DNA of 32,000 nt from Bellilinea caldifistulae (GTDB lineage: Bacteria > Chloroflexota > Anaerolineae > Anaerolineales > Anaerolineaceae), in assembly GCF_001306055.1 (NCBI RefSeq), contig NZ_LGHJ01000003.1:22989-54988 (forward strand), given 5' to 3'. Numbering within the stretch: position 1 is the stretch's first letter; each line of letters starts with the position of its first letter. Both the position numbers and the translations under genes were made by a program. This document shows, in pieces, positions 6,538-32,000 of this stretch. The notes below the pieces were generated by a model. That model ran no database searches and had not been told where the DNA came from. It saw nothing but the letters and a program-made list of their open reading frames with translations.

Positions 6538-6969
6538 GTGAATATGTCCACTCTGAAGACGACCCTGACCGGATACGCCGGTTATCGTGGACGGGAAGGT
6601 CATTGGGCCTTTCTTCTGCACCGGATTACCGGGTTGGGAGTAGTCCTGTTTCTCACCATTCACATTGTTGACATTGCTTTTGTTTATTTTCAGCCAGCGT
6701 TGTTCCTGGATGCGCTGGCGCTTTACCAAACCACGCTGTTTGGTATTGGCGAAATTGCGCTGATTTTTTGCGTGTTCTTTCACGGCGTCAATGGGCTGCG
6801 CATTGCCTACTTCGATATGTTCAAACCGGGCTTGTGGAGCATTGAGATGCAGCGCAAAACCACCCGCACCACGCTGATCATTGCCATCATCCTGTGGTTG
6901 CCGGCAGCGGTTTGGATGGTGCGCAATATCCTGCTTCATAATTACGGCATTGTCTTGTTTGGCGGATAG
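6538..6969 (+). CDS. sdhC: Succinate dehydrogenase cytochrome b subunit
   Basis: 143 aa, three TM helices, HRITGLGVVLFLTIHI haem-ligand region, GGAGG RBS. First gene of an sdhCDAB arrangement. Confidence 0.85.
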   Translation: MNMSTLKTTLTGYAGYRGREGHWAFLLHRITGLGVVLFLTIHIVDIAFVYFQPALFLDALALYQTTLFGIGEIALIFCVFFHGVNGLRIAYFDMFKPGLWSIEMQRKTTRTTLIIAIILWLPAAVWMVRNILLHNYGIVLFGG

Positions 6970-12012: not shown

Positions 12013-12013
12013 A

Positions 12014-13759: not shown

Positions 13760-14138
13760 GGTAAACCCATTGGCGCAACAGGGAAAATTCTCAGAAAAGC
13801 GGTGAATTTGAGGGAATCTTTCTCCCCCAATGAATTGTTTTAATATTTTACACTGAATTTATGGAACAATTTATTGCCGTCGCATTGAGGAAGCCTAGTT
13901 GTTGAGATTGATCATGATTGGCACAATCCTTTCAAGCCGGCAAAAATCCCATGGTTTTTTTATGATACTTTTAGGTTTGAGTGTATAATCAACTTGGTTT
14001 TTTATTGTTTTAAGAAATACTCCCCGAAATCTTATCGGTCTTCCTCAATCATCACAATGTAAACATTTGAAACTCCACAGAGCGGGTTGCTTCGACCGCT
14101 GCTGTGTGTGTGGATATTTCTATCTCAGAGGAGGCACG

Positions 14139-17100
14139 ATGAAATCAAAAGTGTACGTAATTTTAGCCGCCATCCTGCTGTTCAGCATGCTGGCGGCGCC
14201 GGTTTCTGCGGGGAGTGTTTCGCCGAAGGCAATACCCTCCCCTTCAGCAGAGACGGAGACGATCTCATCTCCGGGGCAAAAGCTGCAACTCACGGATGCC
14301 AGCAGCGAGGTGCAACCCTTCGATGGGCGTTATTTTGTCCTTTTCGATGGTGATTCGCTGGTGCAGAGTTTCTCCGACGATTCCGGTCAGATTCAGGTGG
14401 ACTCGCTGGAGGCTCAGGCATACCTGAATCTGCTCAGGCGTGAGCAGGATACCCGCTTACAGCAAATCAGCCGGGTGATCCAGCGCAGTGTACAGCCGAT
14501 TTTCCGCTACGATGTGGTGCTGAACGGTTTTGCTCTCCAACTCAGCCCGACCGAGGCTGCCCGCATCCGCAGCCTGCCGGGCGTGCGCGCCGTCATCCCC
14601 GATCGGCTGGAGCAGCCGCTGACGGACGCCGGGCCGTGGTTTATCCGGGCGGATGCGATATGGGGCGGCAGCACGCCGGGCGCTGTTGCCACAAAAGGCG
14701 AGGGGATTGTTGTCGGTATTCTGGATACCGGCATCAACTTTGACCATCCATCCTTTGCTGATGATGCCGATCCAACTTATACCTACCCGGACACGCCACC
14801 TAAAGGGGTGTGCGCGGTGAGTGGAGGGCCTTACGAAAATGCCTGTAACAACAAATTGATCGGTGCGTATTCCTTCACGAACGAAGCGGTTACGCCGGAA
14901 GATACTAACGGTCATGGTTCGCACACGGCTTCTACGGTGGCGGGAAATCCATTGACCATCTCCACCTTCAACGGTGTATCCAATGTTACCATCTCCGGCG
15001 TCTCCCCGCGCGCGCAAATCATTGCTTATGATGTATGCGATGATTCGGGCTGTGCAACAACCGCTTCGGTGGCTGCTGTGCAGCAAGCTATTGAGGATGG
15101 GGTGAGTGTAATCAATTACTCCATCTCCGGCGGTAAAACGCCTTATACCGATCCCGTGGAACTGGCTTTTCTGGAAGCTTTCGATGCCGGGATTTTCGTG
15201 GCGGCATCCGCCGGCAACCTGCGAACCGAACCCACCACCGATGGGCAGGTCAACCATGTCAGCCCGTGGGTGATGACGGTTGCCGCCAGCAGCCATAACC
15301 GCCGTTTTGGGCACCTGGTGGATGTGGTTGATCCTGCGAATAGTGAATTGATGGGATTGTTTGCCGTGCCGGGTACCGGTCCAAAGTTCACTACCTATCT
15401 AAATCCAATTGAAATTCGCTACGATGAAAATAATGCCACTGGTTGCGCATCCTTCAATTCAGATTTCTTTGCTGACTCAATTGCCCTGATACAGCGAGGA
15501 GGTTGTACCTTTGCAACGAAAGTCAATAACGCCACCGAAGCCGGGGCTGTGGGTGTGCTTGTTTTTAACAACAATGGCTTTGCCATCCCTATGGCGGGTT
15601 TGGAGACCACCACCATCCCTTCCGCCATGCTCGATCAGCAGGACGGCGAAGCCTTGCGGGATTATATCCTTCAGGTGATGGATGAATCTTCGCTTCCTGT
15701 TTATGTAGCCATCACCGCCTTCGACAGGCTGGTGGGGGATTACGGCGACATCAAAGCCGATTTCAGTTTCCGAGGGCCGAGTTACAATGATTTCGAGGTG
15801 CTCAAACCCGATATTACCGCTCCAGGTTTAGAAATTTTGGCGGCGGTTGCGGATGGGAAAATCACCTCCGATTCGGAAGCAGAATATGATTTTTATCAGG
15901 GCACGTCCATGTCCAGCCCGCATGTGGCCGGGGCAGCCGCTTTACTCAAAGCCCTGCACCCCACTTGGAGCCCGGCGGCGATCAAATCGGCGCTGATGAT
16001 GACCGCCAAAACCGAGGGTTTGCGCAAAGAAGACCGCACCACCCCCGCCGACCCCTTCGACCACGGCGCCGGCCGGGTGGACCTGAGCGCAGCCGCCCGT
16101 ACCGCCTTGATACTGGATGAAACGACCGCCAACTTTGAAGCCACCGACCCGGCCAACGGCGGCGACCCCAAATCGCTCAACCTGCCGGCATTGCAGGATA
16201 ACTTCTGCGTGGCTGCCTGCTCATGGACGCGCACCTTTACCAATGTCAGCGGTGTTGCGGTGAGTATGGCTATTACCACACCAACATGGATGACGACTGA
16301 ACCATCCGTCTTTTCGGTGGAAAGCGGAGAGTCCCAAACCATCACCTTCACGGCGGATGTCAGCACGTTGCCGATGGATCAGTGGACATTTGGAACGGTT
16401 AGGCTTAACACCGACAGCGCTTTTGGCGACGGGACGGAAATCGCCGACCTGCATCTGCCGGTGGCGGTATTTTCCACCGCGGGCAACCTGCCCTCTCTGG
16501 TGCAGTTTGATACCTACCGCAATCGCGCCAGCGGAACACTGGAAAACCTGAAGGCGCTGGAAATTGTGGATCTCAGCATCATAAAGTACGGTTTGGTTAA
16601 AGCCAACCTGTTCCAGAACATTCTTGACCCGGATGGGACGCCCGACGATCCTTTCGATAACCTCGCTCAGGTGTGGTACACCACCATAGAAGTGCCAGAT
16701 GATGCCGTCCGGCTTGTAGCAGAAATTACAAACACAACTGCCAATGACCTGGACCTTTACCTTGGTATTGACCTGAACGATAACAGCCTGCCGGAAGAGA
16801 ATGAAATTTACGACGTGAGCGCCACATCTGCCGCTCTGGAATACCTGAGCGAGATGTCCCCGCCACCGGGAAAGTGGTGGGTACTGGTCCAGAACTGGGA
16901 CGGGAATGCCGATGATTCTTTTACTCTTGCGCTGGGCGTGATTCCTGCCACCGACGAAGGCAACCTGACGGTTAATGGGCCCTCTTCCAACCCCAGCACA
17001 ACCCCATTTGAACTGGAAGTGATCTGGGATGAAACAACCCAACCCGGCGACCGGCTATACGGTGCTTTCAGTGTCGGTTCTCAGCCCGGCACAGAAGGCG

Positions 17101-18215
17101 ATATCGGCGTGGTTGCCCTGGATGTGCGTCGTCTTGGTGAGGAAGTGGTCAAAAGCGTAGATCACGAAACAGCCCATGTCGGCGATATTCTGACCTACAC
17201 AATAAGCATCAACAATCCTAATCCTTTTGATGCGGTTTACACCATCGAAGATCAACTCCCGCAGGGTGTCAATCTCATTCCCGGCTCGCTGACCGGCGGA
17301 GCGACCTATGATAGCGTCAATCATAAAATCATCTGGAGTGGTGTGGTGAGTGGTTCGTACCCCACCTACTCAATGACCACCAGCGAAGAGGACCCCGCTT
17401 GTGCCATGCCGTTTGCCACGAAGCGTGGATATGTTAATCTTGAACAATATGGTTTATTTACCAACAGCGTCCTCTCGGGTGATACAAAATGGTGGGTTTG
17501 GGCAACTGGTGGGGGGCCGATCCAATATTTTGGTCAAAACGTTGGGAATACGATCAACTTTATGGATGACGGGATTGCATTCTTTGATCCTTCTACACCG
17601 GGTGACACTCCGTGGGAGAATAAAGACATCCCCACTCCCGCCGAGCCGAACAACTTGCTGGCGTTCTTCTGGCAAGATCTTGAAGTTCAGTATGATGCGA
17701 CGAACAATTATGGAATTACAATGGCAAACTTAAATGACTCGGGAGGCAATCCGGTTGGGCATATTTTGGAGATGGATAATGTACACGTTTACGGTGATCC
17801 AAGCCAGGATTACGACGTGGAATTCTACCTTGCCAAACAAGCGGATGACACACCGGGCGAATACGAAATCATCTTCGCCTACGACAATTTGAACGGTGGA
17901 CTGGATACGGGCACGATTGGGCTGGAAGATGCCAGTGGCCTTCGCGGGATCAAATATGCCTATAACGATCAGGCACTAAGCCAGATCACCGACGGCATGG
18001 CCATTTGCTTCGATTCGGTCATGAGCCAATCCACCCATACAATCACCTATCAGGTACGGGTACAAAATACTGCTGGGGAAGGGTGGTTGATCAATCAACT
18101 GTATCACGATAACGATGCTCCTCAAACCGAAGAGGAAACGGCAGAGGCTCGTGTTTGGATAGCCTATTTCCGTTATTACTTCCCCCTCATTGGCAAGGAA
18201 GCCAGGTTGCCCTGA
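14139..18215 (+). CDS. Secreted multidomain subtilisin-like serine protease (S8A; I9 propeptide, PA insert, PPC-like and DUF11-like modules, long uncharacterised C-terminus)
   Basis: Signal peptide MKSKVYVILAAILLFSMLAAPVSAG after an AGAGGAGG RBS. Catalytic D (VGILDTGI), H (NGHGSHTAST), S (GTSMSSPHVAGAAALL). PA-type insert GGCTFATKVNNATEAGAVGVLVFNN. NDLDLYLGIDLNDN is pre-peptidase-C-like; GDILTYTISINNPN is DUF11-like. The track start at 14067 lacks an RBS or signal peptide. Confidence 0.92.
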   Translation: MKSKVYVILAAILLFSMLAAPVSAGSVSPKAIPSPSAETETISSPGQKLQLTDASSEVQPFDGRYFVLFDGDSLVQSFSDDSGQIQVDSLEAQAYLNLLRREQDTRLQQISRVIQRSVQPIFRYDVVLNGFALQLSPTEAARIRSLPGVRAVIPDRLEQPLTDAGPWFIRADAIWGGSTPGAVATKGEGIVVGILDTGINFDHPSFADDADPTYTYPDTPPKGVCAVSGGPYENACNNKLIGAYSFTNEAVTPEDTNGHGSHTASTVAGNPLTISTFNGVSNVTISGVSPRAQIIAYDVCDDSGCATTASVAAVQQAIEDGVSVINYSISGGKTPYTDPVELAFLEAFDAGIFVAASAGNLRTEPTTDGQVNHVSPWVMTVAASSHNRRFGHLVDVVDPANSELMGLFAVPGTGPKFTTYLNPIEIRYDENNATGCASFNSDFFADSIALIQRGGCTFATKVNNATEAGAVGVLVFNNNGFAIPMAGLETTTIPSAMLDQQDGEALRDYILQVMDESSLPVYVAITAFDRLVGDYGDIKADFSFRGPSYNDFEVLKPDITAPGLEILAAVADGKITSDSEAEYDFYQGTSMSSPHVAGAAALLKALHPTWSPAAIKSALMMTAKTEGLRKEDRTTPADPFDHGAGRVDLSAAARTALILDETTANFEATDPANGGDPKSLNLPALQDNFCVAACSWTRTFTNVSGVAVSMAITTPTWMTTEPSVFSVESGESQTITFTADVSTLPMDQWTFGTVRLNTDSAFGDGTEIADLHLPVAVFSTAGNLPSLVQFDTYRNRASGTLENLKALEIVDLSIIKYGLVKANLFQNILDPDGTPDDPFDNLAQVWYTTIEVPDDAVRLVAEITNTTANDLDLYLGIDLNDNSLPEENEIYDVSATSAALEYLSEMSPPPGKWWVLVQNWDGNADDSFTLALGVIPATDEGNLTVNGPSSNPSTTPFELEVIWDETTQPGDRLYGAFSVGSQPGTEGDIGVVALDVRRLGEEVVKSVDHETAHVGDILTYTISINNPNPFDAVYTIEDQLPQGVNLIPGSLTGGATYDSVNHKIIWSGVVSGSYPTYSMTTSEEDPACAMPFATKRGYVNLEQYGLFTNSVLSGDTKWWVWATGGGPIQYFGQNVGNTINFMDDGIAFFDPSTPGDTPWENKDIPTPAEPNNLLAFFWQDLEVQYDATNNYGITMANLNDSGGNPVGHILEMDNVHVYGDPSQDYDVEFYLAKQADDTPGEYEIIFAYDNLNGGLDTGTIGLEDASGLRGIKYAYNDQALSQITDGMAICFDSVMSQSTHTITYQVRVQNTAGEGWLINQLYHDNDAPQTEEETAEARVWIAYFRYYFPLIGKEARLP

Positions 18216-22146: not shown

Positions 22147-23220
22147 ATGGAAAAACCTGAAACCCCTATTCTGGCACACAAACCCGCCCGTCCGGTTGGG
22201 ATTGTCGGCTACGGCGCCTATGTGCCGCGCTACCGCCTTCCGGCGCGTGAAGTGGCGCGCATCTGGAAAGGCGGCAAGGACGAAGCCCCGGTACGCGAGA
22301 AGTCGGTGCCCGGGGCGGATGAGGATGTGATTACCATGTCCATCGAAGCCGCTCGCAATGCGCTGGCGCGCGCCCGCATTCACGCTCACGAGATTCGCGC
22401 CGTGTGGGTGGGCTCGGAATCACACCCCTACGCCGTCAAACCCAGTTCAACGGTTGTTGCGGAAGCCATCGGTGCGCCGGTCAGCATTCAAGCCGGTGAT
22501 TGGGAATTTGCCTGCAAAGCCGGCACCGAGGCGATGGTGGCAGCGATTGCAATGGTCGCCGCTGGGATGGGTCGTTACGCGCTGGCGATTGGCATGGATA
22601 CGGCTCAGGGACGTCCTGGCGATGCACTGGAATATACCGCTGCTGCCGGAGGGGCGGCTTACATCCTCGGTCCGGCGGAAGAATCGCTGGCGGTGGTGGA
22701 GGGTACCTATTCCTATGTGACCGATACCCCCGACTTCTGGCGGCGGGCGCATGAACGTTACCCTCAACACGGGCAGCGCTTTACCGGTGACCCGGCTTAC
22801 TTCAAGCACATTACCGAAGCCGGCAAGCAGTTAATGAAGGACTTGGGCGTGACTGCCGCGGATATCCAGTATGCGGTGTTTCACCAACCCAACACCAAGT
22901 TTCCGCAGCGGGTAGCCAAAATGCTAGGCTTTACACCGGAGCAGATTCAGCCCGGCCTGCTCTCTCCGGTGATCGGCAACACCTACGCCGGCGCGGCGAT
23001 GATCGGGCTTTCGGCTGTGCTGGATTGCGCCAAACCCGGCGACCGTATCCTGGTGGTCTCGTTTGGCTCAGGCGCCGGTTCGGATGCTTTCCTCTTCCGG
23101 ACTACCGAAGCGCTGGTCGAACGCCAGCGGCTGGCTCTCCAAACGCAGGATTATATTGCCCGCCGTACCGAAATTGATTACGGCATGTACGTCCGGCTGC
23201 GCGGCAAGCTGGCGGATTGA
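22147..23220 (+). CDS. HMG-CoA synthase, archaeal type
   Basis: 357 aa thiolase-fold condensing enzyme. N-terminus [15 protein letters not shown], catalytic-Cys region [14 protein letters not shown] and GNTYAGA motifs. Adjacent to thiolase and DUF35 genes, as in archaea. Confidence 0.88.
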
Positions 23221-23231
23221 GGAGGCTAACC

Positions 23232-24392
23232 ATGCGTGAAGTGGTGATTGCCGGTATCGGTCAGACACGGGTTGGCGAGTTGTGGGATATTTCCCTGCGT
23301 TCGCTGGCCTATCAGGCGATAAAGGCCGCCCGCCGGGATGCCAACGGTCTGATGCCCGATGCCCTGTATGTGGGAAACTATCTGGCGATTGTGACCTCGC
23401 ACCAGTCCAATCTCGGCACCTTGCTGGCCGATAACGCCGGTCTGACCGGCGTTGAAGCCTTCACCTGCGAGGCTGGCCAGGCCTCCGGTGGGGCTGCTTT
23501 TCAGATGGGGTTCATGGCGGTGGCTTCCGGTTATGTGGATGCGGCACTGGTGGTTGGCGTAGAAAAGTACACCGATGCGATTGGCAGCGAGCAAGAGGCC
23601 GCCCTGGCAATTTCGATGGACGCCGATTATGAGGCGATGGTCGGGTTGACCCTGGCCGGACAGGCCGGTTTGCTGATGCAGCGTTACCTGCATCAGTACG
23701 GGGCGCCCCGTTCGGCGTTTGGGGCGTTTCCGGTGCTGGCGCATGCCAATGCGGTCAACAACCCGTTTGCCATGTACCGGCGGGCCATTGACCAGCAGAC
23801 TTATGAGAAAGCCGAGCCGGTTGCCGACCCGCTCAATCTATACGATCAGGCTTCCTACGCCGATGGCGCTGCAGCGGTGCTGCTGACCACCCCTGAGAAG
23901 GCACAAGAAGCCGGTATCCGCCACCCGCTGGTACGCGTGCGCGGTTCAGCCGGGGTGATTGATACGCTGGCGCTGCATGACCGGCCCGACCCACTAGCCT
24001 TCGATGCCGCTCGTTACGCCGTGCAGCGTGCCTGTGAAATGGGCGGTGTTCTTCCGGGCGAGGTGGATTTATTTGAGATGGATGACGCTTTTTCGATTTA
24101 CGCCGTGCTGGGGCTGGAAGCGGCCGGATTTGCCGAGCGCGGTGAAGGCTGGCGTTTGGGCCAAAATGGCGACTTGCGGTTGAATGGGCGTCTGCCCATT
24201 CTCACCATGGGCGGCAGCAAGGGCCGCGGCAATCCGCTGGGAGCCGCAGGTGTGTACCAGATTGTGGAGGCGGCTCAGCAACTGCGCGGCGAGGCGGGCG
24301 CCAATCAGGTTACCGGTGCTCGCATGGCGTTGACACTCAATTTGGGCGGGCCGGCTTCATCCGCTTTTGCCCATGTGTTGGAAAAGCGATGA
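23232..24392 (+). CDS. Acetyl-CoA acetyltransferase (archaeal-type thiolase)
   Basis: MREVVIAGIGQT..., active-site Cys region CEAGQASGGAA, C-terminal GGSKGRGNPLGAAG. GGAGG RBS before the ATG at 23232. Confidence 0.88.
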   Translation: MREVVIAGIGQTRVGELWDISLRSLAYQAIKAARRDANGLMPDALYVGNYLAIVTSHQSNLGTLLADNAGLTGVEAFTCEAGQASGGAAFQMGFMAVASGYVDAALVVGVEKYTDAIGSEQEAALAISMDADYEAMVGLTLAGQAGLLMQRYLHQYGAPRSAFGAFPVLAHANAVNNPFAMYRRAIDQQTYEKAEPVADPLNLYDQASYADGAAAVLLTTPEKAQEAGIRHPLVRVRGSAGVIDTLALHDRPDPLAFDAARYAVQRACEMGGVLPGEVDLFEMDDAFSIYAVLGLEAAGFAERGEGWRLGQNGDLRLNGRLPILTMGGSKGRGNPLGAAGVYQIVEAAQQLRGEAGANQVTGARMALTLNLGGPASSAFAHVLEKR

Positions 24393-24394
24393 GG

Positions 24395-24447
24395 TTTGAT
24401 AGGTTTTGATAGGAATCCGGATGATTCTTGATAGGAATTGACAGGAT
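24395..24447 (+). promoter_or_regulatory. Four phased TTGAYAGG direct repeats in the thiolase-DUF35 intergenic region
   Basis: TTGATAGG at 24396, 24406 and 24428, and TTGACAGG at 24438 (spacings 10, 22, 10 bp). Confidence 0.35.
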
Positions 24448-24502
24448 CAGGCCGATAGACTGTATGCTGGATTGATTTACAAAGTAGAAGGAGAGAAAAA
24501 TC

Positions 24503-24910
24503 ATGGAAATTCCGCGACATTGGCGATTGAAGAAACAGCGTTACTCGCTGCAAGGTGAGATTTGCCCGCATTGCGAAGGGAAGATCTTCCCGCCGCGAGA
24601 TGTATGTCCGCACTGCGGGAATGATGCCCGCACCACCTTCACCTTTAGCGGGCGGGGCAAGGTGTATTCGTTCACGCACGTGACCGAAGCGCCGGCTGGC
24701 TTTGAAGAAACCGCCCCCTACACAGTGGCGCTGGTGCAGTTGGAGGAAGGGCCGGTGGTGACCGCGCAGTTGACGGACGTGGAAGCGGATGAGGTGGAAA
24801 TTGGCATGCCGGTGGAGATGGTCACCCGCAAGATTCGCTCGGATGGCAATGAACGCGGCATTATCATTTACGGGTATAAGTTTCGGCCGGTGCTTGACGG
24901 CGCACGATAA
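24503..24910 (+). CDS. DUF35 Zn-ribbon/OB-fold protein (scaffold of the thiolase/HMG-CoA synthase complex)
   Basis: 135 aa. Rubredoxin-like CPHCEGKIFPPRDVCPHCGN followed by an OB-fold segment. Located next to the thiolase and HMGCS genes. Confidence 0.88.
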   Translation: MEIPRHWRLKKQRYSLQGEICPHCEGKIFPPRDVCPHCGNDARTTFTFSGRGKVYSFTHVTEAPAGFEETAPYTVALVQLEEGPVVTAQLTDVEADEVEIGMPVEMVTRKIRSDGNERGIIIYGYKFRPVLDGAR

Positions 24911-24933
24911 ACACGCTTCAATAAAAGAATATT

Positions 24934-24967
24934 AAAAGCGTTCTCCAGGACTGGAGAGCGCTTTTTT
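24934..24967 (+). terminator. Rho-independent terminator of the mevalonate gene cluster
   Basis: AAAAGCGTTCTCCAG / CTGGAGAGCGCTTTT stem with one mismatch, ending in a T6 run. Confidence 0.75.
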
Positions 24968-25091
24968 GATTGACTGTTCAGGGGTGGCGAAAGTGGGAGA
25001 ATAATGTTTCAGGCAAGTGGCATCGCGAATCTGGTCGAGCAGTTTTCTGGGTTTTGGAGAGGATGGATCAGGCGTAAGATCAGCTAATCTT

Positions 25092-25120
25092 TTTACATGT
25101 GGGGATGTTATAATTAATAT
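25092..25120 (+). promoter_or_regulatory. Candidate sigma-70-like promoter facing the cassette array
   Basis: TTTACA (25092-25097), 17-bp spacer, TAATAT (25115-25120). Lies in the A/T-rich spacer about 120 bp before the first GTTGGGC crossover site. Confidence 0.3.
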
Positions 25121-25493
25121 AGCATTTATTCTAATCGGAGGGTTTCAGATAATCAAGCATAATAGCAGCATAACATGCTTTTTTAGAATGAGTATACGGC
25201 AAAAATGCAGTGTATCAGAAGTCTGTATAATTAATAGTTGGGCCGCAGTGTCACAACAATCACAATAGTAAGACAATATACCAACAATGGTTTTCATAGA
25301 GTCACAACCCCGCGTAGAGGGCGTGAGCCTGTCCAGGGCAATGGCATGGCAACATGAAAACCTATATCACGGTCAGCGCCGGCGTACTTCTACGAAACAG
25401 GAGCGTGTGGCTCACAGCACAATACTATGTGAGCAAGAGCCGAAATGCATAGAGCTGGAAACTCACCACAATCACAAACTAAGGAGACAGAAA

Positions 25494-26606
25494 ATGAATA
25501 TCAAAAAGCTTACAATCTCCGCGGCCACAATCTTGGTACTTCTATTCAGTTTTAATACATTTACAGTGGCTTCAGCTTCGGATAAAGACAGCCAGGAGGA
25601 GAGCAAAATCAAAGAGACCATAAATTCTTACTTCCAGTTACGTTACGAAGCCTTAAAATCGCTTAAGCCTGCTGATTTCTCGTCTTTAGCTACCACGACT
25701 GACAATGTATCAACTGAGAAATGGCTTCGTCAAGAACAGGATAGGCAGGATGTTGAACTCTTTATTGCCGAAACTTTCAAGACAAGTTACCTTGAGTACA
25801 AGTTCTTTCTCGACTATCAAAGCATTGAAATAAACGGCAATGAAGCTGTAGCCAAGTTGCTGGAAAGTAATGAAGTGTTTTTTACCTCCAATCCTACATT
25901 ACCTTCCAGGACGGCAAATCTGGAACATACAATTACACTAGAGAACATGAACGGGGGTTGGAAAATCTCTAATGATCAATATCGCGACGAAACAATCGAA
26001 CTATTAGAGACATCAACAAAAGACGATATTCTAAGGAACATCCAGATTAATCGTGATGCCCAGTTTTTGGGGCGCACTACAGGTCAATCGGCGCAACCAG
26101 AAGCCACTTACTCTTACAAACGGACATTAGCCGCAAGTTATGCTGACACTTGGTGGAACTCAATAAACCCCACTTACCATGATGAATCGGGCAATGATTG
26201 TACTAACTTTGCTTCCCAAGCGATTTATGAGGGCACTGAGCATACGATGTCAGACCCCACAAACTACAATACAATGTGGTACTATGATTTTTACACGCAT
26301 AGTGGCTCATATCCGTGGGTTAATGTAGGGGGCCTCTATACCTTCCTCACCTCGAATACTGGAAAAGGCCCTTATGGATACAGTTCGGGGGCCTATACCT
26401 GCAATCTTTCCAAGGGGGATGTGGTTACAATGAAGCAGAGCGGAACATGGAAACATACCGTAGTGGTGGTCTCAATCGCAGGTGATTGCCATGTGCCATC
26501 CAACATCCTTGTTGACGCACATGATACCGACCGTTACCATTACCCACTCTCAAACTATAGTGGGTACACTTGGTATTCAATAACCATTTCGGGATACCGA
26601 AAGTAG
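25494..26606 (+). CDS. Secreted protein with a C-terminal papain-fold putative amidase domain (Amidase_6-like)
   Basis: AAGGAG RBS, signal peptide MNIKKLTISAATILVLLFSFNTFTVASA. Cys motif GNDCTNFASQAIYEG, then WKHTVVVV and DAHDTD (Cys/His/Asp-type triad). The upstream part of the track ORF (25287-25493) has no RBS and would bury the signal peptide. Confidence 0.8.
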   Translation: MNIKKLTISAATILVLLFSFNTFTVASASDKDSQEESKIKETINSYFQLRYEALKSLKPADFSSLATTTDNVSTEKWLRQEQDRQDVELFIAETFKTSYLEYKFFLDYQSIEINGNEAVAKLLESNEVFFTSNPTLPSRTANLEHTITLENMNGGWKISNDQYRDETIELLETSTKDDILRNIQINRDAQFLGRTTGQSAQPEATYSYKRTLAASYADTWWNSINPTYHDESGNDCTNFASQAIYEGTEHTMSDPTNYNTMWYYDFYTHSGSYPWVNVGGLYTFLTSNTGKGPYGYSSGAYTCNLSKGDVVTMKQSGTWKHTVVVVSIAGDCHVPSNILVDAHDTDRYHYPLSNYSGYTWYSITISGYRK

Positions 26607-26626
26607 CAAATAGCAGATCTCATCAC

Positions 26627-26743
26627 ACACCACCCTACCTGACATCAGACAACAAAGATTTGCGCGACTACCAAAACGCACCCATTATCTTGCTCGAACA
26701 CTTACAAACCCAATTCTCATGTCTATGTCAGGTAGGGTTAAAC
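26627..26743 (+). repeat. Intra-cassette imperfect palindrome ending in GTTAAAC (degenerate attC or RNA hairpin)
   Basis: Perfect 13-bp arms CCCTACCTGACAT (26633-26645) and ATGTCAGGTAGGG (26725-26737). Extended by GACAT(c)AGACA / TGTCTATGTC with one bulged base. The right end is GTTAAAC (26737-26743), but the left core is ACACCAC, not RYYYAAC. Confidence 0.6.
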
Positions 26744-26766
26744 ATTTAAATATGTGAGGTTTCGAA

Positions 26767-27333
26767 ATGCCAAAAAACTCTCTTTCACTAAATGAGTTCA
26801 TTTTATTCGTATTATTCGCCACAGCCTTTGCTTTATCCGCTTGCACACAATCAAAGGGGATAAGCGAACTTCCTGTAAACTCGGCAGTGCCATCACAAAC
26901 GCCAGTGCAAACTTCAACTTATAGATGGGTTGAATACGAAGAAGCCTTAGCAAAGGTTTTACTGGCTGGTGCTTATCCATCCGAATCAGAAAGTGAAGGT
27001 TTATGCGAATGGTCGATTCTGGGGCATAATGAACAAGAAGTCTATGTGTGGGCCTTATGCCAAGTTGCTAGCACGGCCTCAGGCACAGCTAGTAGCGTTC
27101 CTGTTGTTATTAAGCTGTCGCCTGATGGAAGAATTGAGGAAGTCGTGATCCCCAGAGATGGAACAGACTATGGGCTGGATATTCAAAATCTCTTCCCATC
27201 TGATGTGCAAGAACGAATAAATAACCTTGCATCCTACTTCGATGTCAAGGCCGCGATGGAGCACATTGCTTTACGACGAGAAGACCGGACAATACCGCCA
27301 ATAATTGTAGAGGCAGGAACTCCTTTGCCATGA
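26767..27333 (+). CDS. Hypothetical lipoprotein
   Basis: Lipobox FALSAC after a hydrophobic N-terminus, GTGAGG RBS, 188 aa. I recognise no domain. Confidence 0.7.
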   Translation: MPKNSLSLNEFILFVLFATAFALSACTQSKGISELPVNSAVPSQTPVQTSTYRWVEYEEALAKVLLAGAYPSESESEGLCEWSILGHNEQEVYVWALCQVASTASGTASSVPVVIKLSPDGRIEEVVIPRDGTDYGLDIQNLFPSDVQERINNLASYFDVKAAMEHIALRREDRTIPPIIVEAGTPLP

Positions 27334-27368
27334 TACATGCGGTTTGAAGTGGATTATCAAATAATGCG

Positions 27369-27498
27369 GCCCAACCTGGCGCTGGAGCGGACGGGGCGGG
27401 ACTCTCCCCCGAGGGTATGCGTGCGCTCGAAGGGTTATCGCAGGTCCCGAAGGTAATTCCGTTCCCGCCCGCCCCGCCGCTCAGCTTAGTTGTTAGGT
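27369..27498 (+). repeat. attC-like recombination site of cassette 1
   Basis: R'' GCCCAAC (27369-27375) and R' GTTAGGT (27492-27498). A 9-nt unpaired spacer, then the GC-rich stem GAGCGG(a)CGGGGCGGG pairing with CCCGCCCCGCCGCTC, including an extrahelical base. 130 bp. Confidence 0.8.
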
Positions 27499-27559
27499 TG
27501 CTAAGATTTAACACGTGCCGATTTGCACGCTCACAAAAAATAGTCAGGAGAAGCGCAAA

Positions 27560-27934
27560 ATGAGAACCAAAATAATAAAAATGGTATTACTACTCCTGCT
27601 TGCAATTGCAGGATTCGCTCTTGTATTTTGGGTAGCAAAAAATATGCCAACCAAGCAAGAACTTCGAGCTAAACAAATCATCCAATCTTTCATAGATTCA
27701 AAAGGAATGGATATAGAACCTGGTACAGAGGAATACAAAATATTCATGCGGGGCATTGTATGGGGTGAATATCCTGAGTTAACAGGAAATGGCTCGAATT
27801 TCGTCAAGAACCAGGAAGAGTTAGACTATGTGCTCGATTATGCCTGGAAGTATTCGGGGTACAAAGGTCTATATGGAGACTATAACGAGCTAGACACAGA
27901 AGAAGCAGCACCAACAACTGAATCTAACAAATGA
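27560..27934 (+). CDS. Small membrane/secreted protein; truncated paralogue of the N-terminal module of the next gene
   Basis: AGGAG RBS, MRTKIIKMVLLLLLAIAGFALVFW hydrophobic N-terminus. From about QIIQSFIDSKGMDIEPGTEEYKIF...GDYNE onward it matches 27990..29084 almost exactly. Confidence 0.65.
   Translation: MRTKIIKMVLLLLLAIAGFALVFWVAKNMPTKQELRAKQIIQSFIDSKGMDIEPGTEEYKIFMRGIVWGEYPELTGNGSNFVKNQEELDYVLDYAWKYSGYKGLYGDYNELDTEEAAPTTESNK
27672..27909 (+). repeat. Direct repeat, copy 1 (about 238 bp, one mismatch to copy 2)
   Basis: AACAAATCATCCAATCTTTCATAG...GAGACTATAACGAGC(T/C)AGACACAGAAGAAGCAGC is repeated with an offset of 415 bp. Confidence 0.9.
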
Positions 27935-27989
27935 CTGTAGGCAACAACTAACGTAAGCATATCTTCCAGAAAAGCAAAGGAACTTCACA

Positions 27990-29084
27990 ATGAACGTAAC
28001 CAAAGTTATCTTACTTCTATTAGCTGTTTTGGGAATTGCCATCAACCCATTACCGGAGATTAATGAGCAAACGGAAACACAGGCGGAACAAATCATCCAA
28101 TCTTTCATAGATTCAAAAGGAATGGATATAGAACCTGGTACAGAGGAATACAAAATATTCATGCGGGGCATTGTATGGGGTGAATATCCTGAGTTAACAG
28201 GAAATGGCTCGAATTTCGTCAAGAACCAGGAAGAGTTAGACTATGTGCTCGATTATGCCTGGAAGTATTCGGGGTACAAAGGTCTATATGGAGACTATAA
28301 CGAGCCAGACACAGAAGAAGCAGCCTCGCCGGAAAAATTTGGAGAGCAGAGGTTGACAGCTATCAACCTTTCAACATCATTGGGGCGTTCAAATGCAATT
28401 GCCTATGCTTATCAGTGGAGTATATCTGGGGGCACAAGTCGAAACCCAGCCTACCCTGACTTCGGAGCTGATGACTGTACTAATTTTGTGAGTCAAGCGA
28501 TGAAAGCGGGCGGATTTATTGAGAAGGGGAGTGGTGATGGATGTAAACATGAGAATACAAGCACAGAATGGTACGTCGAATCAAATCCATCTCCTCCATG
28601 GTGGTGTACTGGTGACTTTCGCAATTGGGAATGGTCAACGAGCTGGAGCGTTCCATGGCCATTTCGAGATTATTTTGCATATCAGAACGATTATGCAATC
28701 CCTCATGGATGGACAACAAGTGTATCTACTGCCAAATATTTTCTTTCTCCAGGAGATGTGATACAGATTCAATACGAAGATAACGGGGAATGGATAAGCT
28801 TTCATACAATGATAGTTACCGACGAGGATGAGAATGATCTCTATGTCACTTATCACTCTAACGCAGGAGGTTTTGATGAAGTTGACAAACCCCTTAGCAC
28901 AATAGATTTAGGGTCTAACAAACGCTTCCAATTAGTTGAAATCAAATTCCCTGCTCTGATATTTTTGCCACTGATACTAAATGGCGGAGGAACAACCGGG
29001 AATCCGTTGAACTCCCCAAACCCCTATCCAGCACCAATGGAATACAAGGAGCCACAACCACTCGGGCCTTACCCACCACCATAA
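27990..29084 (+). CDS. Secreted protein with a papain-fold putative amidase domain (Amidase_6-like) and a Pro-rich tail
   Basis: Hydrophobic N-terminus MNVTKVILLLLAVLGIAI, then the duplicated module. Cys motif ADDCTNFVSQAMKAGG, His region ISFHTMIVTDED...YHSNAGG. C-terminus NPYPAPMEYKEPQPLGPYPPP. Confidence 0.8.
   Translation: MNVTKVILLLLAVLGIAINPLPEINEQTETQAEQIIQSFIDSKGMDIEPGTEEYKIFMRGIVWGEYPELTGNGSNFVKNQEELDYVLDYAWKYSGYKGLYGDYNEPDTEEAASPEKFGEQRLTAINLSTSLGRSNAIAYAYQWSISGGTSRNPAYPDFGADDCTNFVSQAMKAGGFIEKGSGDGCKHENTSTEWYVESNPSPPWWCTGDFRNWEWSTSWSVPWPFRDYFAYQNDYAIPHGWTTSVSTAKYFLSPGDVIQIQYEDNGEWISFHTMIVTDEDENDLYVTYHSNAGGFDEVDKPLSTIDLGSNKRFQLVEIKFPALIFLPLILNGGGTTGNPLNSPNPYPAPMEYKEPQPLGPYPPP
28087..28324 (+). 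repeat. Direct repeat, copy 2
   Basis: See copy 1. The single difference seen is T at 27891 versus C at 28306. Confidence 0.9.
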
Positions 29085-29118
29085 TAAACATGGCAATTAT
29101 ATTTTCCTGTTTAGCGCA

Positions 29119-29246
29119 ACCTAACAACCAGGTGGAGCGGACGGGCGGGGATTCCCCCGTCCGAGGGTAAGCGTGCGCCCGAAGGCACTCTGACCTCGAA
29201 GGCGTGCCGCCAAAGTCCCGCCCGTCGCTCACCTGGGGCGTTAGCC
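29119..29246 (+). repeat. attC-like recombination site of cassette 2
   Basis: R'' ACCTAAC (29119-29125) and R' GTTAGCC (29240-29246). Long arm CCAGGT(g)GAGCG(g)ACGGGCGGG pairs with CCCGCCCGTCGCTCACCTGG, with extrahelical Gs. The central part is homologous to attC1 (TCCCCCG..GAGGGTAWGCGTGCGCYCGAAGG). 128 bp. Confidence 0.8.
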
Positions 29247-29307
29247 CGCCTTGCATCTCCATTATGGAGATACAGCAAGTTCGTCTTAAGGCTCACAGGG
29301 TAGAGAA

Positions 29308-29832
29308 ATGCGGATATCGATCAGCGATTTCACTTCACTATTCAGCATATTGGCTGTACTCGTAAGCATTATTGCGCTTGTTGTCGAGATAAGAAGGGAT
29401 AGGCTTGCCCTGCAAGTTGATCTGTTGCTTAGGTTAGATGACAAGCTCCACTCTCCCGAGTTTAAAGCGCTTCGCCAAGTTGCTGCACAGAAGCTACTGA
29501 GCAACGAGAGACCCAACTATGAGTTAGAGGATTTGCTTGAACTATTCTCTACTATAGCTTTCCTATATGAACGCAAAGCAATCGATGCTGACCTCGCATT
29601 CGTTCATTTCTCATATTGGCTCGATCGATATTGGCTTTGTGCAAGAAACTATGTCGAGGAGGAAAGCAGGAAATACGATCCTCTGAGTTACAAAACACTT
29701 GAGCGAGTGGCTCAGCTATTTGTTGAAAAGGAACTTAAGAGTGGTTATCCGCCGTTTTCAGAGGAGGTATTACAGAATTTCCTCAAGGAAGAGACGCACG
29801 CAACAGTAAGAGGCGGCATAATCCGCGCTTGA
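29308..29832 (+). CDS. Hypothetical small membrane-anchored protein
   Basis: 174 aa with a single N-terminal TM helix FTSLFSILAVLVSIIALVV, then a helical soluble part. I can assert no recognisable catalytic motif. Confidence 0.65.
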   Translation: MRISISDFTSLFSILAVLVSIIALVVEIRRDRLALQVDLLLRLDDKLHSPEFKALRQVAAQKLLSNERPNYELEDLLELFSTIAFLYERKAIDADLAFVHFSYWLDRYWLCARNYVEEESRKYDPLSYKTLERVAQLFVEKELKSGYPPFSEEVLQNFLKEETHATVRGGIIRA

Positions 29833-29913
29833 ACCTGATGCTGCTTCCGCTGCACTGTGCAGGTAAGCTTTTCCATTAGCCCGCTTGGTAAGATGTTGCA
29901 TCACAGGGTTGTC

Positions 29914-30564
29914 ATGAAAGGAAAGTTACGAGAGCTGAAATGGCTAAAGCATTTATCCGCTTTTGTCACAGCGGCAACGATAGCCGTCAGTTTCATGCTT
30001 TCGGCTTGTTCGCCATCGTTGAGCGATGTCTCTGCTAATCCTGCTCCAATGTCTGTGGTAAATACACCCGTACTGTCCGCAACGCTTACGCAAACCCTGA
30101 CGCCAACATCTGCGCCAACCGCCACCAGCACAGCCACAGCAACCCTGACACCGACAGAAACACCCACTGCCACTGTGGTTCCCGTGGAAACGGTTCTATC
30201 GCAAATCGGCTGTTCCACCAACCTGACACGCGACGGGTTTTATCTATGCTCCCTTCATGCACTTGATTTGAGCAAGTTGCCAGCGGGCTGGACGATAAGG
30301 GTGTATGTCTGGCAGGCGGATAGGAATTACACCGACAGACAACCCTATGCCATAGTGCAAAGCGGCAGTGATATGATCACGCCCAGAACGCCAGCGATGT
30401 ATGTGAGCGTGCTGCAGGACGAGCGAGTGCTTTATGAGTTCAGCCTGTACTTTCCGGGTCTTGTCTCAGCGCCAACTGTTCAGAAAGGTCAGCCTGCTGA
30501 ACAAGGGCAGCCAATTCTTCCACCGCCACCACCGCCACAACCGACCACAGAACCTGGGACATGA
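29914..30564 (+). CDS. Hypothetical lipoprotein with a Thr/Pro/Ala-rich linker and Pro-rich C-terminus
   Basis: MKGKLRELKWLKHLSAFVTAATIAVSFMLSAC lipobox, TLTQTLTPTSAPTATSTATATLTPTETPTAT linker, C-terminal PPPPPPQPTTEPG. Alternative starts at 29857 and 29893. Confidence 0.65.
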   Translation: MKGKLRELKWLKHLSAFVTAATIAVSFMLSACSPSLSDVSANPAPMSVVNTPVLSATLTQTLTPTSAPTATSTATATLTPTETPTATVVPVETVLSQIGCSTNLTRDGFYLCSLHALDLSKLPAGWTIRVYVWQADRNYTDRQPYAIVQSGSDMITPRTPAMYVSVLQDERVLYEFSLYFPGLVSAPTVQKGQPAEQGQPILPPPPPPQPTTEPGT

Positions 30565-30587
30565 TAAACTGTTCTAAAATAAACGCG

Positions 30588-30765
30588 GGCTAACACTGTT
30601 TGCAACGGACACATTCGCTACGCTCAGTGAAGGCAGCGGCTTCGCCGCTTCAGGGTATGCGCCGCGAGCCAGCGAAGTTGATTTTTAGGTGAAGGTGTCT
30701 TGCCAGCCCCGCCGCTGCAGCCGACGCCGCCTTCGGCGGCGCGGCTGAGCGGCAGGCCGTTGGGC
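30588..30765 (+). repeat. Atypically long attC-like site of cassette 3
   Basis: R'' GGCTAAC (30588-30594) and R' GTTGGGC (30759-30765). CGCTCAG / CTGAGCG and GCCGCTgcAGCC / GGCTgAGCGGC pairings, and CGCCGCCttcGGCGGCG and GAAGgcaGCGGCttcGCCGCTTC inner hairpins. The left spacer is about 19 nt longer than the right. 178 bp, longer than classical attCs. Confidence 0.55.
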
Positions 30766-30816
30766 AGGCCGGCAATCATGAATGGGTATCTTGGTAAAGA
30801 AACAGCAATTGAGCGC

Positions 30817-31353
30817 ATGAATAACCAGCTAACCATCCAGGTAGTACAGAGCGCATTTTTGTCAGATGAAGATCGGAAACCCATCATCGCGCTCTGTAAC
30901 CGCGCTTGTGAGGAAGACTTGGAACCACTGTTCAACACTTTTGTTGGTGCAACTCATGTTCTTGGTTACCATAATGGCCTTCTTGCAAGCCATGCGCTAT
31001 GGGTGACCCGCGATTTGCAAGTTGGAAACAGTCCTCTTTTGCGCACGGCGTACATCGAAGCGCTTGCCACAGACCCAGCCTATCGCGGTCGTGGTTTTGC
31101 AACAGCTATTATGAAACGCGTCGCTGATGAGATTCAGGACTATGAACTGGCAGCTCTTTCTCCATCCAGCGTTGCATTCTATGAGCGACTTGGTTGGGAG
31201 CTTTGGCACGGTCCGTTGTTTATCAGAACTCAAACAGACTTGTTGCCATCTCCAGACCAAGAACAGGTGATGATTCTACGTCTTCCGAAAACACCGCCGC
31301 TAGACCTAAATGCACCACTTTCTGCGGAGTGGCGTGAAGGTGAATTGTGGTGA
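30817..31353 (+). CDS. GNAT N-acetyltransferase resembling aminoglycoside 2'-N-acetyltransferase AAC(2')
   Basis: The 178 aa align by eye along their length with AAC(2')-Ia as I remember it: [14 protein letters not shown]... / HVMAFDQQKLVGHV...; [21 protein letters not shown] / [32 protein letters not shown] / VGWQIWKGKLF; C-terminal EWREGELW / DFRGGDQW. The track start at 30700 reads through the attC. The ATG at 30778 is an alternative start. Confidence 0.8.
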   Translation: [178 protein letters not shown]

Positions 31354-31411
31354 TAAGGACGTTGTAGGAGTAACATCGTGAAACCAGATTCCATATTTTG
31401 TTCATGGGCCT

Positions 31412-31488
31412 GCCCAACCCGTGCCTCTACCTGATGGCTTCGCTTCGCTGTGCTTGGCTCGCCGCAGGTCAAGCGCGCACCGTTAATT
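31412..31488 (+). repeat. attC-like recombination site of cassette 4 (last in the array)
   Basis: R'' GCCCAAC (31412-31418) and R' GTTAATT (31482-31488). Paired segments GTGC and ACCTG/CAGGT with internal loops. 77 bp. Confidence 0.65.
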
Positions 31489-31583
31489 AACAATTCTCCA
31501 AAACCGGCTTACAGGCTGCTGTTGGAAAGAGCACAAAAATGATTTTGCAAAATGATGACAGGCGATCCGAAAGATGAGGGGCG

Positions 31584-31898
31584 ATGGGAGATCCACGCCG
31601 ATCCAGTTTGATTTCGACGGATGACCAGCCGTCCAGTCCGCCGCCGTTGCCGGCAGGTCGTTTTCCGGCCTGGGCAGGCTTTGCCAGAAGGGGCGCTCTC
31701 GTTGGTTTTGGCGTGGGTTTACTGGCTTTAGCAGTTGCACTGGCTGTGGTCTGGCGCTGCCTGCCTTTCTACATCACCTACCCGCCCCTGCCGTGGCCGT
31801 GGTATTGCGCTGAGCCGGCTTACAGCACCATCGCTTTTCTGGCTTTTCCGATTAATCTCATCACCGATGACCTGGGGCTGTCTGGAAAGAACATCTAG
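31584..31898 (+). CDS. Hypothetical small membrane protein (weak call)
   Basis: GAGGGG precedes the ATG and GC content is like the host. Two hydrophobic segments (GALVGFGVGLLALAVALAVVW, STIAFLAFPINLI). No recognisable homology. Confidence 0.4.
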   Translation: MGDPRRSSLISTDDQPSSPPPLPAGRFPAWAGFARRGALVGFGVGLLALAVALAVVWRCLPFYITYPPLPWPWYCAEPAYSTIAFLAFPINLITDDLGLSGKNI

Positions 31899-31949: not shown

Positions 31950-31986
31950 AAAAAAAATTGGCTGTTGATCAGGCAGCCAATTTTCG
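31950..31986. terminator. Bidirectional-looking terminator hairpin
   Basis: A8 run, AATTGGCTG / CAGCCAATT stem, then TTTTCG. The T8 run on the minus strand suggests it mainly terminates a minus-strand gene lying beyond the window end. Confidence 0.5.
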
Positions 31987-32000
31987 TAGATTGTGGGCTA

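Follow-up and report, generated by a model that had tools for sequence, protein, structure and literature searches.

A chromosomal integron that has probably lost its integrase gene, located beside the mevalonate operon of Bellilinea caldifistulae

The subject of this study is an array of gene cassettes in Bellilinea caldifistulae GOMI-1, a thermophilic anaerobe of the class Anaerolineae (PMC4574363), and the DNA analysed—referred to here as the window—is the whole of a 32,000-nt stretch of contig NZ_LGHJ01000003.1. Our analysis indicates that positions 24998-31488 of the window represent a chromosomal integron with its integrase gene lost, which retains four plus-strand cassettes that each end in an attC site; we assign this reading a probability of about 0.8. 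With two strongly and two weakly supported attC sites within 4.1 kb and no integron-integrase gene nearby, the array corresponds to clustered attC sites without an integron-integrase (CALIN). An integrase-less, CALIN-like array had been proposed for this region in an initial annotation made from the sequence, and that proposal is supported, as no integrase gene was found in the window or in the 10 kb to its right.

Excision of cassettes by integron integrases proceeds through attC x attC recombination, for which the bottom strands are folded, and the circles are then inserted at attI, with the cut between the G and the TT of the core. The boundaries of all four units in the window carry the corresponding scar. 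The eight R'' and R' core heptamers listed in the initial annotation were confirmed by reading the sequence (R'' as RYYYAAC, R' as GTTRRRY, crossover at G|TT), and so were its four flank pairs—perfect reverse complements of 11, 10, 10 and 12 nt, none of which can be extended. These closures tile end to end, each beginning at the G|TT of the preceding site, and a scan of the entire window for GTT...AAC closures of at least 10 nt at a spacing of 250-4000 nt returned a single match outside the array, at 6910. We then rebuilt every attC as it would stand in an excised circle, with its own R''...G joined to the TT... of its own cassette start, and folded the bottom strand. The rebuilt hairpins were all more stable than those present in the array: -41.6 kcal/mol (z -4.6) vs. 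-30 (z -0.9) for attC1, -44.4 kcal/mol (z -5.8) vs. -39.7 for attC2, -59.3 kcal/mol (z -4.8) vs. -50.9 for attC3, and -25.9 kcal/mol (z -2.3), in the form of a simple hairpin, vs. -13.1 (z +0.7) for attC4. This is what the circle model predicts, and what chance does not. Each cassette starts with the reverse complement of the R'' flank of its own attC, a trace left when a circle was closed at G|TT; closures and folding together support the earlier suggestion that every unit was once circular. Such closure would have been brought about by integron-integrase recombination of the folded bottom strand, and excised cassette circles would be expected to display junctions such as ...GCGGCCCAAC...G|TTGGGCCGCA. 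The open reading frames (ORFs) within the units leave stop-to-R'' gaps of 35, 34, 23 and 58 nt and R'-to-ATG gaps of 250, 61, 61 and 12 nt in cassettes 1-4. The gap figures of the initial annotation are in near agreement with these values, including the 250 nt of cassette 1; the lower limit of 52 nt given for cassettes 2-4 applies to cassette 4 if the second ATG of its ORF is used.

To what extent the palindromes are recognizable as attC sites was assessed with surrogate covariance models, folding and relatives. A covariance model built from an alignment of 13 attC sites, none of them from the window (model R2), assigned 102 bits (E 5e-25) to attC2 and 65 bits (E 2e-15) to attC1, while returning nothing significant in window 1-25000; the attC-family models likewise found no significant copy there or in the flanks. 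Because R2 finds nothing significant in these other 25 kb, attC1 and attC2 are not dispersed repeats, a possibility that the initial annotation had named as a refutation of its own proposal. In the consensus of the family, the bottom strand forms an R box of 7-8 bp, a short unpaired spacer and an L stem of about 20 bp, with two single-base bulges on the 3' (R''/L'') arm—the arm on which the extrahelical bases of characterised attC sites are located. Across the alignment of the 13 sites, 90% of the cells are paired vs. 31-45% in slid controls, and eight pairs have changed on both sides, i.e., by compensatory substitution. Folding, bulges and covariance scores thus agree with the classical layout and the mutual homology previously described for attC1 and attC2. 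One unexpected observation was that the loop motif CGAGGGTAWGCG (e.g., window 27410-27421 and 29162-29173) does not vary among eight members of the family, given that the central part of an attC is supposedly variable; the motif is also partly kept in attC3, as AGGGTATGCG.

A pattern derived from attC1 and attC2 detected members of the family in metagenome-assembled genomes (MAGs) labelled Chloroflexia, Chloroflexota, Anaerolineales and Anaerolinea, as well as in a single Desulfobacter-binned contig and two metagenome contigs, together with a few chance matches devoid of R boxes; a scan of viral contigs with this pattern gave no matches. The contig binned as Desulfobacter (L005, 2176 bp) carries a clear Chloroflexota-family attC at its end, to be explained either by cross-phylum cassette transfer or by a binning error. 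Model R2 also reached clinical integrons. In a test set of three plasmid loci with class 1 integrons (39 kb), its top two matches were the attC sites of aac(6')-IIa (E 1.6e-6) and aadA5 (E 1.5e-5), both on the correct strand. When the arms were compared with the 57-nt attC of aadA5, attC1 matched at 44/59 positions and attC2 at 40/58, scores reached by none of 2000 shuffles. The attC sites of aadA5 and aac(6')-IIa (pAS70-1, NZ_CP061572.1) share with attC1 and attC2 the R''-8 nt-L'' layout, the L'' 11-mer AGCGGACGGGC and an L' of the form GCCCG.CGCTCA, whereas the clinical class 1 sites lack both the motif CGAGGGTAWGCG and the roughly 75 extra loop bases seen in the window. Judged by their sequence, attC1 and attC2 are aadA5-type sites with about 75 additional bases in the loop. 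The 3' half of attC3, in turn, matches the attC core of aac(6')-IIa from a class 1 integron at 26/28 positions. BLAST found no link between the attC sites of the window and those of class 1 integrons, the matches of attC3 against plasmids were chance GC-rich ones only, and a MAFFT alignment of the arms from six class 1 attC sites was poor.

The second line of evidence comes from the left end of the array, where positions 25100-25240 appear to behave as an attI site, because a single G|TT on a conserved sequence unlike attC carries different first cassettes. Three such cassettes were found joined to the platform ...TATAATTAATAG|TT—in the window, in L013 and in L014—and in all of them the homology ends at GTT. 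L013, a metagenome contig of 2.5 kb, matches window 25142-25243 at 82%, up to GTTGGGC; it continues with another two-gene cassette bearing its own 10/10 closure, with an attC of 155 bits and with the start of the window's cassette 2 (L013 2386-2506). The first cassette of L013 also occurs in L011, behind an ordinary attC instead of the platform, which strengthens the platform reading. L014, retrieved through an 80-aa ORF spanning the probable integrase relic described below, matches window 22210-25241 at 92.2% over the mevalonate genes, the terminator, the relic and the platform; beyond GTTGG, where the match breaks off, L014 continues with a DNA methylase cassette. The platform itself is 92% conserved in L014 and more diverged in L015. 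The sequence TATAATTAATA is present twice within it, at 25111 and 25226, and a candidate outward promoter (TTTACA-17-TAATAT, 25092-25120) is recognizable as a consensus match only, among weak promoter-like matches that point both ways; transcription of the cassettes probably proceeds from a promoter in the platform. A scan of viral contigs with a 17-mer from the platform yielded chance matches only.

Variation at the level of whole cassettes extends beyond the first position. L010, the start of a contig in an Anaerolinea-labelled MAG with at least five further attC sites in one orientation, is 92.7% identical over its positions 1-259 to window 28985-29242 (the Amidase_6 end of cassette 2 plus attC2); the homology stops at G|TT and a different cassette comes next. 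In L010, L013, L014 and L011 alike, then, homology breaks exactly at G|TT, so that the variation among relatives that the initial annotation had proposed to look for is present, and at the sequence level these loci show that cassettes move as independent units between arrays. A further pair of loci, L015/L016, encodes a DUF35 protein 93% identical to that of the window within operon DNA that is 85% identical, with a left flank shared with the window, a platform that has diverged, and a right flank, likewise shared, that consists of a small ORF followed by ABM, MFS, AlkZ-like and sensor genes. The low-GC array enclosed by these flanks is wholly different and has an attC-like site in each of its intergenic gaps. 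The left flank is conserved at 92% in L014 and at 85% in L015, and the location of the integron is common to the window, L014 and L015/L016 and absent from L022, L023, L019 and L021. Among the loci with DUF35 homologues, L017 and L019-L023 have neither the platform nor an intI. Two of these more distant relatives (L017 and L021, DUF35 80-84% identical, no platform and no intI in view) show matches to the attC models a few kb downstream of the mevalonate operon, i.e., at 58 and 44 bits in L017 (18138-18278 and 18852-18984) and at 15 bits in L021 (12463-12580); the region after this operon may be a cassette hotspot in the wider clade. Another mobile element, encoding a large serine recombinase, a Prim-Pol protein and a tyrosine recombinase, is inserted in the 3' end of the DUF35 gene in L019 (8359-15002) and L020.

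The third line of evidence is a stretch of 78 nt between the attI platform and the mevalonate terminator which, on the minus strand, probably represents codons 1-26 of a former intI gene. Within it, the segment KLLDQIRDATCLKHYS resembles the N-terminus of integron integrases. This segment was the top match in a tblastn search of the window and the 10 kb to its right (L001) with IntI1 as the query (a sequence 100% identical to a database protein), albeit a weak one (minus strand, 25045-24998, E 3). In an ungapped BLOSUM62 comparison with residues 14-29 of IntI1, the relic reached a score of 41, as against 29 for the runner-up among 365,576 six-frame positions (window plus all loci). It lies some 140 nt from the crossover and is oriented away from the cassettes, as would be expected for the 5' end of intI, and the similarity stops 31 nt short of the terminator. 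Among 1.84 billion representative proteins searched, one relative of 26 aa was found (P0006, MPDPSSPKPKKLLDQRRETIGLKHYS; carried by two JGI/IMG contigs, the longest of 5150 bp), the only member of its protein cluster, which has a Met where the window and L014 have ACG; with a score of 46, it is closer to IntI1 than either of those relics. A homologue search with a 41-aa relic query gave no candidates, and the homologues listed for IntI1 (class 1-like integrases) included no Chloroflexota integrase. Apart from the weak relic match, neither a PF00589-type gene (Pfam) nor an intact IntI (tblastn) was found in the window or the 10 kb rightward. What adjoins the attI is hence not a functional intI but a probable 26-codon relic without a start codon, and the earlier statement that the window holds no tyrosine-recombinase ORF is borne out, with a probable relic at 25075-24998 to be added to it.

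Taken together, these features suggest that the locus most likely originated by deletion of intI from a chromosomal integron, and not by insertion at a secondary site. The deletion would have joined codon 26 of intI to sequence lying just downstream of the mevalonate terminator. Because the window and L014 have an identical junction, which is still recognizable in L015, this event would predate the divergence of the three lineages. The initial annotation had placed the array as an insertion just after the operon terminator, its left edge only about 270 bp away. Location and distance are both correct, but this interval resolves into a short spacer, the likely intI relic and the conserved attI platform, and the presence of the latter two argues against a simple insertion. 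Without an integrase in cis, the array would be frozen unless changed by an integrase encoded elsewhere or by homologous recombination. Although intI is truncated identically in the window and in L014, the first cassettes that they carry at one G|TT are not the same; this difference reflects either the action of a trans integrase at the orphan attI or the replacement of arrays via the conserved flanks. Since the truncation is shared and the first cassettes differ, cassettes could have been inserted after the loss of intI, and the orphan attI may conceivably still be in use by an integrase located elsewhere in the genome or on a passing element, although we hold this to be doubtful. If it were so, the orphan attI would be a functional part of the genome's integron system—a 'satellite' integron platform that relies on an integrase in trans and is maintained across species.

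Several observations weigh against the integron reading and temper the confidence placed in it. At the right end of the array, attC3 is an atypical site of 186 nt with a branched fold that scores 9.5-15 bits with the covariance models (9.5 with R2), which is not significant, and attC4 (77 nt core to core, 31412-31488; 82 nt including the R'' flank, 31407-31488) has no match with the family models. The covariance scoring envisaged in the initial annotation is therefore strong for attC1 and attC2, weak for attC3, which is not a classical site, and nil for attC4; attC3 and attC4 are the weaker calls, based on end cores, cassette closure and folding. As for the relic, Pfam and NCBIfam searches of the peptide returned no matches, and its best PDB match (phmmer) is an unrelated WH2 motif, LLDQIR..LK, so that LLDQIR alone proves nothing. 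An HMM (hidden Markov model) of the IntI1-clade N-terminus ranks the relic first, but only at E 0.35-2.5, and its informative residues number just 16-26. In none of the retrieved loci was an intact intI detected next to this platform. Lastly, the platform junction of L015 reads ATT and is less clear, and the cassette closure in that locus is imperfect.

The absence of an integrase gene nearby would also fit a CALIN formed by cassette insertion at a secondary site (attG, GWT) through an integrase encoded elsewhere, in which case neither attI nor intI would ever have existed here. Insertion at GWT sites has been demonstrated genome-wide and proposed as a source of small CALINs (10.1101/2022.09.11.507474), and the evidence for the intI relic is short and receives no backing from profile libraries. 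The junction, however, lies in a platform of about 140 nt that is conserved in four loci, and three first cassettes are joined to it at G|TT, as would be characteristic of an attI; moreover, the relic matches the N-terminus of IntI1 far above all other six-frame positions, in the expected place and orientation. We consider the attG route unlikely on these grounds. Still less probable is a rearrangement that split the array off from a complete integron elsewhere, for example through the insertion sequence (IS) at its right end. An IS (DDE_Tnp_1 + DUF772) does lie just right of the array, and rearrangement is among the proposed origins of CALINs (PMC4889954), but L015 has the same flanks and platform without the IS, the left boundary is a conserved attI-type junction rather than a broken cassette or an IS end, and the housekeeping flanks are the same in the window and in L015/L016, with the left one shared by L014.

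As GC-rich imperfect hairpins located downstream of ORFs, the palindromes could in principle be taken for transcription terminators or for repeats akin to repetitive extragenic palindromes (REP) or miniature inverted-repeat transposable elements (MITE), with coincidental complementarity of their flanks. We give this explanation almost no credence. None of the hairpins is followed by a T tract, neither of the models finds a significant copy in the remaining 25 kb of the window, the closures are perfect in 4/4 cases and tile without interruption, and homology with other genomes breaks at G|TT; in addition, the externally trained R2 recovers the attC sites of class 1 integrons as well. The features of the locus on the preferred reading—an integron deprived of its integrase gene—are listed in Table 1, along with both flanks.

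Table 1. Features of the array and its flanks (window coordinates)
Feature	Coordinates	Strand	Description
Intrinsic terminator, mevalonate operon	24934..24967	+	GC-rich hairpin followed by TTTTTT; left chromosomal flank, outside the integron
Probable intI 5' relic	24998..25075	-	26 codons, TPDPSSPKPRKLLDQIRDATCLKHYS; start codon ATG -> ACG; ends after HYS
attI-type platform	25100..25243	+	Crossover G|TT at 25237|25238 in ...GTATAATTAATAG|TTGGGC; conserved in relatives
Cassette 1	25238..27492	+	Closure GTTGGGCCGCA / TGCGGCCCAAC, 11/11; two ORFs and attC1 (27369-27498)
Cassette 2	27493..29240	+	Closure 10/10; two ORFs and attC2 (29119-29246)
Cassette 3	29241..30759	+	Closure 10/10; two ORFs and attC3 (30588-30765)
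Cassette 4	30760..31482	+	Closure 12/12; ORF 30778-31353 and attC4 (31412-31488)
Right flank	31483..31898	+	Palindrome GTTAATTAAC (31482-31491), then a 104-aa ORF (31584-31898)

A chromosomal integron of Xanthomonas located by ilvD, with lineage-specific inactivation of intI, was reportedly described by Gillings et al. in 2005. This integron (10.1101/2025.06.18.660453) is the closest analogue of the locus studied here: both have a fixed site beside a housekeeping gene and are vertically inherited, with intI inactivated or deleted in some lineages and with arrays that differ among relatives. The two differ in phylum, the window belonging to Chloroflexota, and in that no lineage with an intact intI has been found yet at the window locus; furthermore, intI loss in Xanthomonas goes with stable arrays, whereas lineages sharing the truncation at the Bellilinea locus carry different first cassettes. 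In common with CALINs as defined previously (PMC4889954), the array comprises a minimum of two attC sites pointing the same way, along with cassette ORFs, and lacks an intI within 4-10 kb, and it is small, as are most CALINs (four attC sites here), with cassettes mostly of unknown function. Unlike them, it keeps an attI platform and a 26-codon intI relic at its left end. Like attG insertions and single attC sites lacking integron-integrases (SALIN; 10.1101/2022.09.11.507474), it comprises cassettes outside a complete integron that are joined at G|TT, but the junction in the window is a conserved, repeatedly used platform and not a one-off GWT site. The Vibrio superintegron, with its Vibrio cholerae repeats (VCR), is likewise chromosomal and has related attC sites within the array and cassettes of unknown function; it holds more than 100 sites, as opposed to the four sites of the window, of which only two are close relatives and which have no integrase. 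As regards the traits of sedentary chromosomal integrons (a fixed location, a large array and homogeneous attC sites), the location is shared by some of the relatives only, and the array has just four attC sites, two of them closely related.

Around 95% of CALINs have no intI pseudogene that can be recognized in their vicinity, and this has served as an argument that they arise in other ways than by integrase loss (PMC4889954; 10.1101/2022.09.11.507474). The pseudogene screen in question required more than 50% coverage of C-terminal profiles (PMC4889954), and a relic such as that of the window would be missed by it for this very reason. Short intI relics and an orphan attI can thus hide under the CALIN label, and integrase deletion may be under-counted as an origin of CALINs, because a 26-codon relic is invisible to profile searches while comparative alignment reveals the attI and the stub. 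Chloroflexi were already known to carry integrons (PMC4889954). Our literature search retrieved no paper connecting Bellilinea with integrons, and one wastewater study on sul4 mentions Anaerolineae together with integrons and attC; the present analysis adds a dissected integron locus from Anaerolineae, where integrons have hardly been described.

The cassettes encode proteins that are for the most part of unknown function. Cassette 1 contains a secreted Amidase_6 protein (25494-26606, Pfam) and a lipoprotein-like protein of 188 aa (26767-27333); no RNA structure of significance was seen in its 250-nt leader (z +0.4). Between these two ORFs, at 26628-26738, lies a long hairpin (stem of 14-19 bp, DNA z -5.4) that ends in GTTAAAC. 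It was considered as a decayed attC and rejected, as it has no R'' partner and matches neither attC model. In cassette 2, a 124-aa ORF (27560-27934) is followed by an ORF for a secreted Amidase_6 protein of 364 aa (27990-29084), and the former is a duplicate of the N-terminal part of the latter, in keeping with an internal direct repeat of 238 nt (27672-27909 and 28087-28324, 99.6% identical, 415-nt spacing). Cassette 3 encodes a DUF4760 protein (29308-29832) and a lipoprotein-like protein of 216 aa (29914-30564). The sequence ATTAGCCCGCTTGG at 29875 repeats the start of this cassette (GTTAGCCCGCCTTG at 29240), and on account of this recurrence cassette 3 may be two cassettes fused across a decayed attC; the intervening segment 29833-29913 was examined as a candidate for such a site and discarded, its folding being not significant and the covariance models lending it no support. 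The ORF of cassette 4 encodes a GNAT acetyltransferase that is a distant relative of AAC(2')-I (Pfam, NCBIfam, PDB) and can be aligned from end to end with AAC(2')-I enzymes (PDB 1M44, E 1e-18). The enzyme cannot be called a resistance gene product, because it scores far under the NCBIfam cut-offs (62 bits vs. 375-400). PADLOC gave no defence matches across all cassette proteins, and on present sequence evidence no cassette gene can be called a resistance or defence gene.

The chromosomal setting on both sides of the array is shared with L015/L016. Upstream lies an archaeal-type set of mevalonate genes coding for HMG-CoA reductase, HMG-CoA synthase, thiolase and a DUF35 OB-fold protein (Pfam), and the GC content falls from 0.56-0.63 to 0.41-0.46 at position 25000, to recover after about 30000. 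At the right end, the 104-aa ORF is partly homologous to a 143-aa ORF at the right end of the L015 array, and the flanks beyond are syntenic. The IS, consisting of a DDE_Tnp_1 transposase and a DUF772 ORF on the minus strand, occupies 31969-32000 of the window and continues in L001 (10386-12062), with the transposase gene starting at 31969; it is positioned between the small right-end ORF and the ABM gene, which in L015 occupy the same place without an IS. Searches of the window for tRNA genes and, at both gathering and E-value thresholds, of the window and the array for Rfam families gave no hits.

Some minor observations concern the two ends of the array and more distant parts of the window. 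The R' of attC4, GTTAATTAAC, is a perfect palindrome of 10 nt, and joining it to the left half of the attI (25226-25237) would rebuild AATTAAT-A-GTTAATT, an inverted repeat that could correspond to an empty attI. Further upstream, the region 9991-18215 carries a UvrD-like helicase and an AAA_11/AAA_12 helicase on the minus strand, followed by a plus-strand ORF of 1382 aa (14067-18215), and the GC content shows a local dip to 0.48 at 13001-14000.

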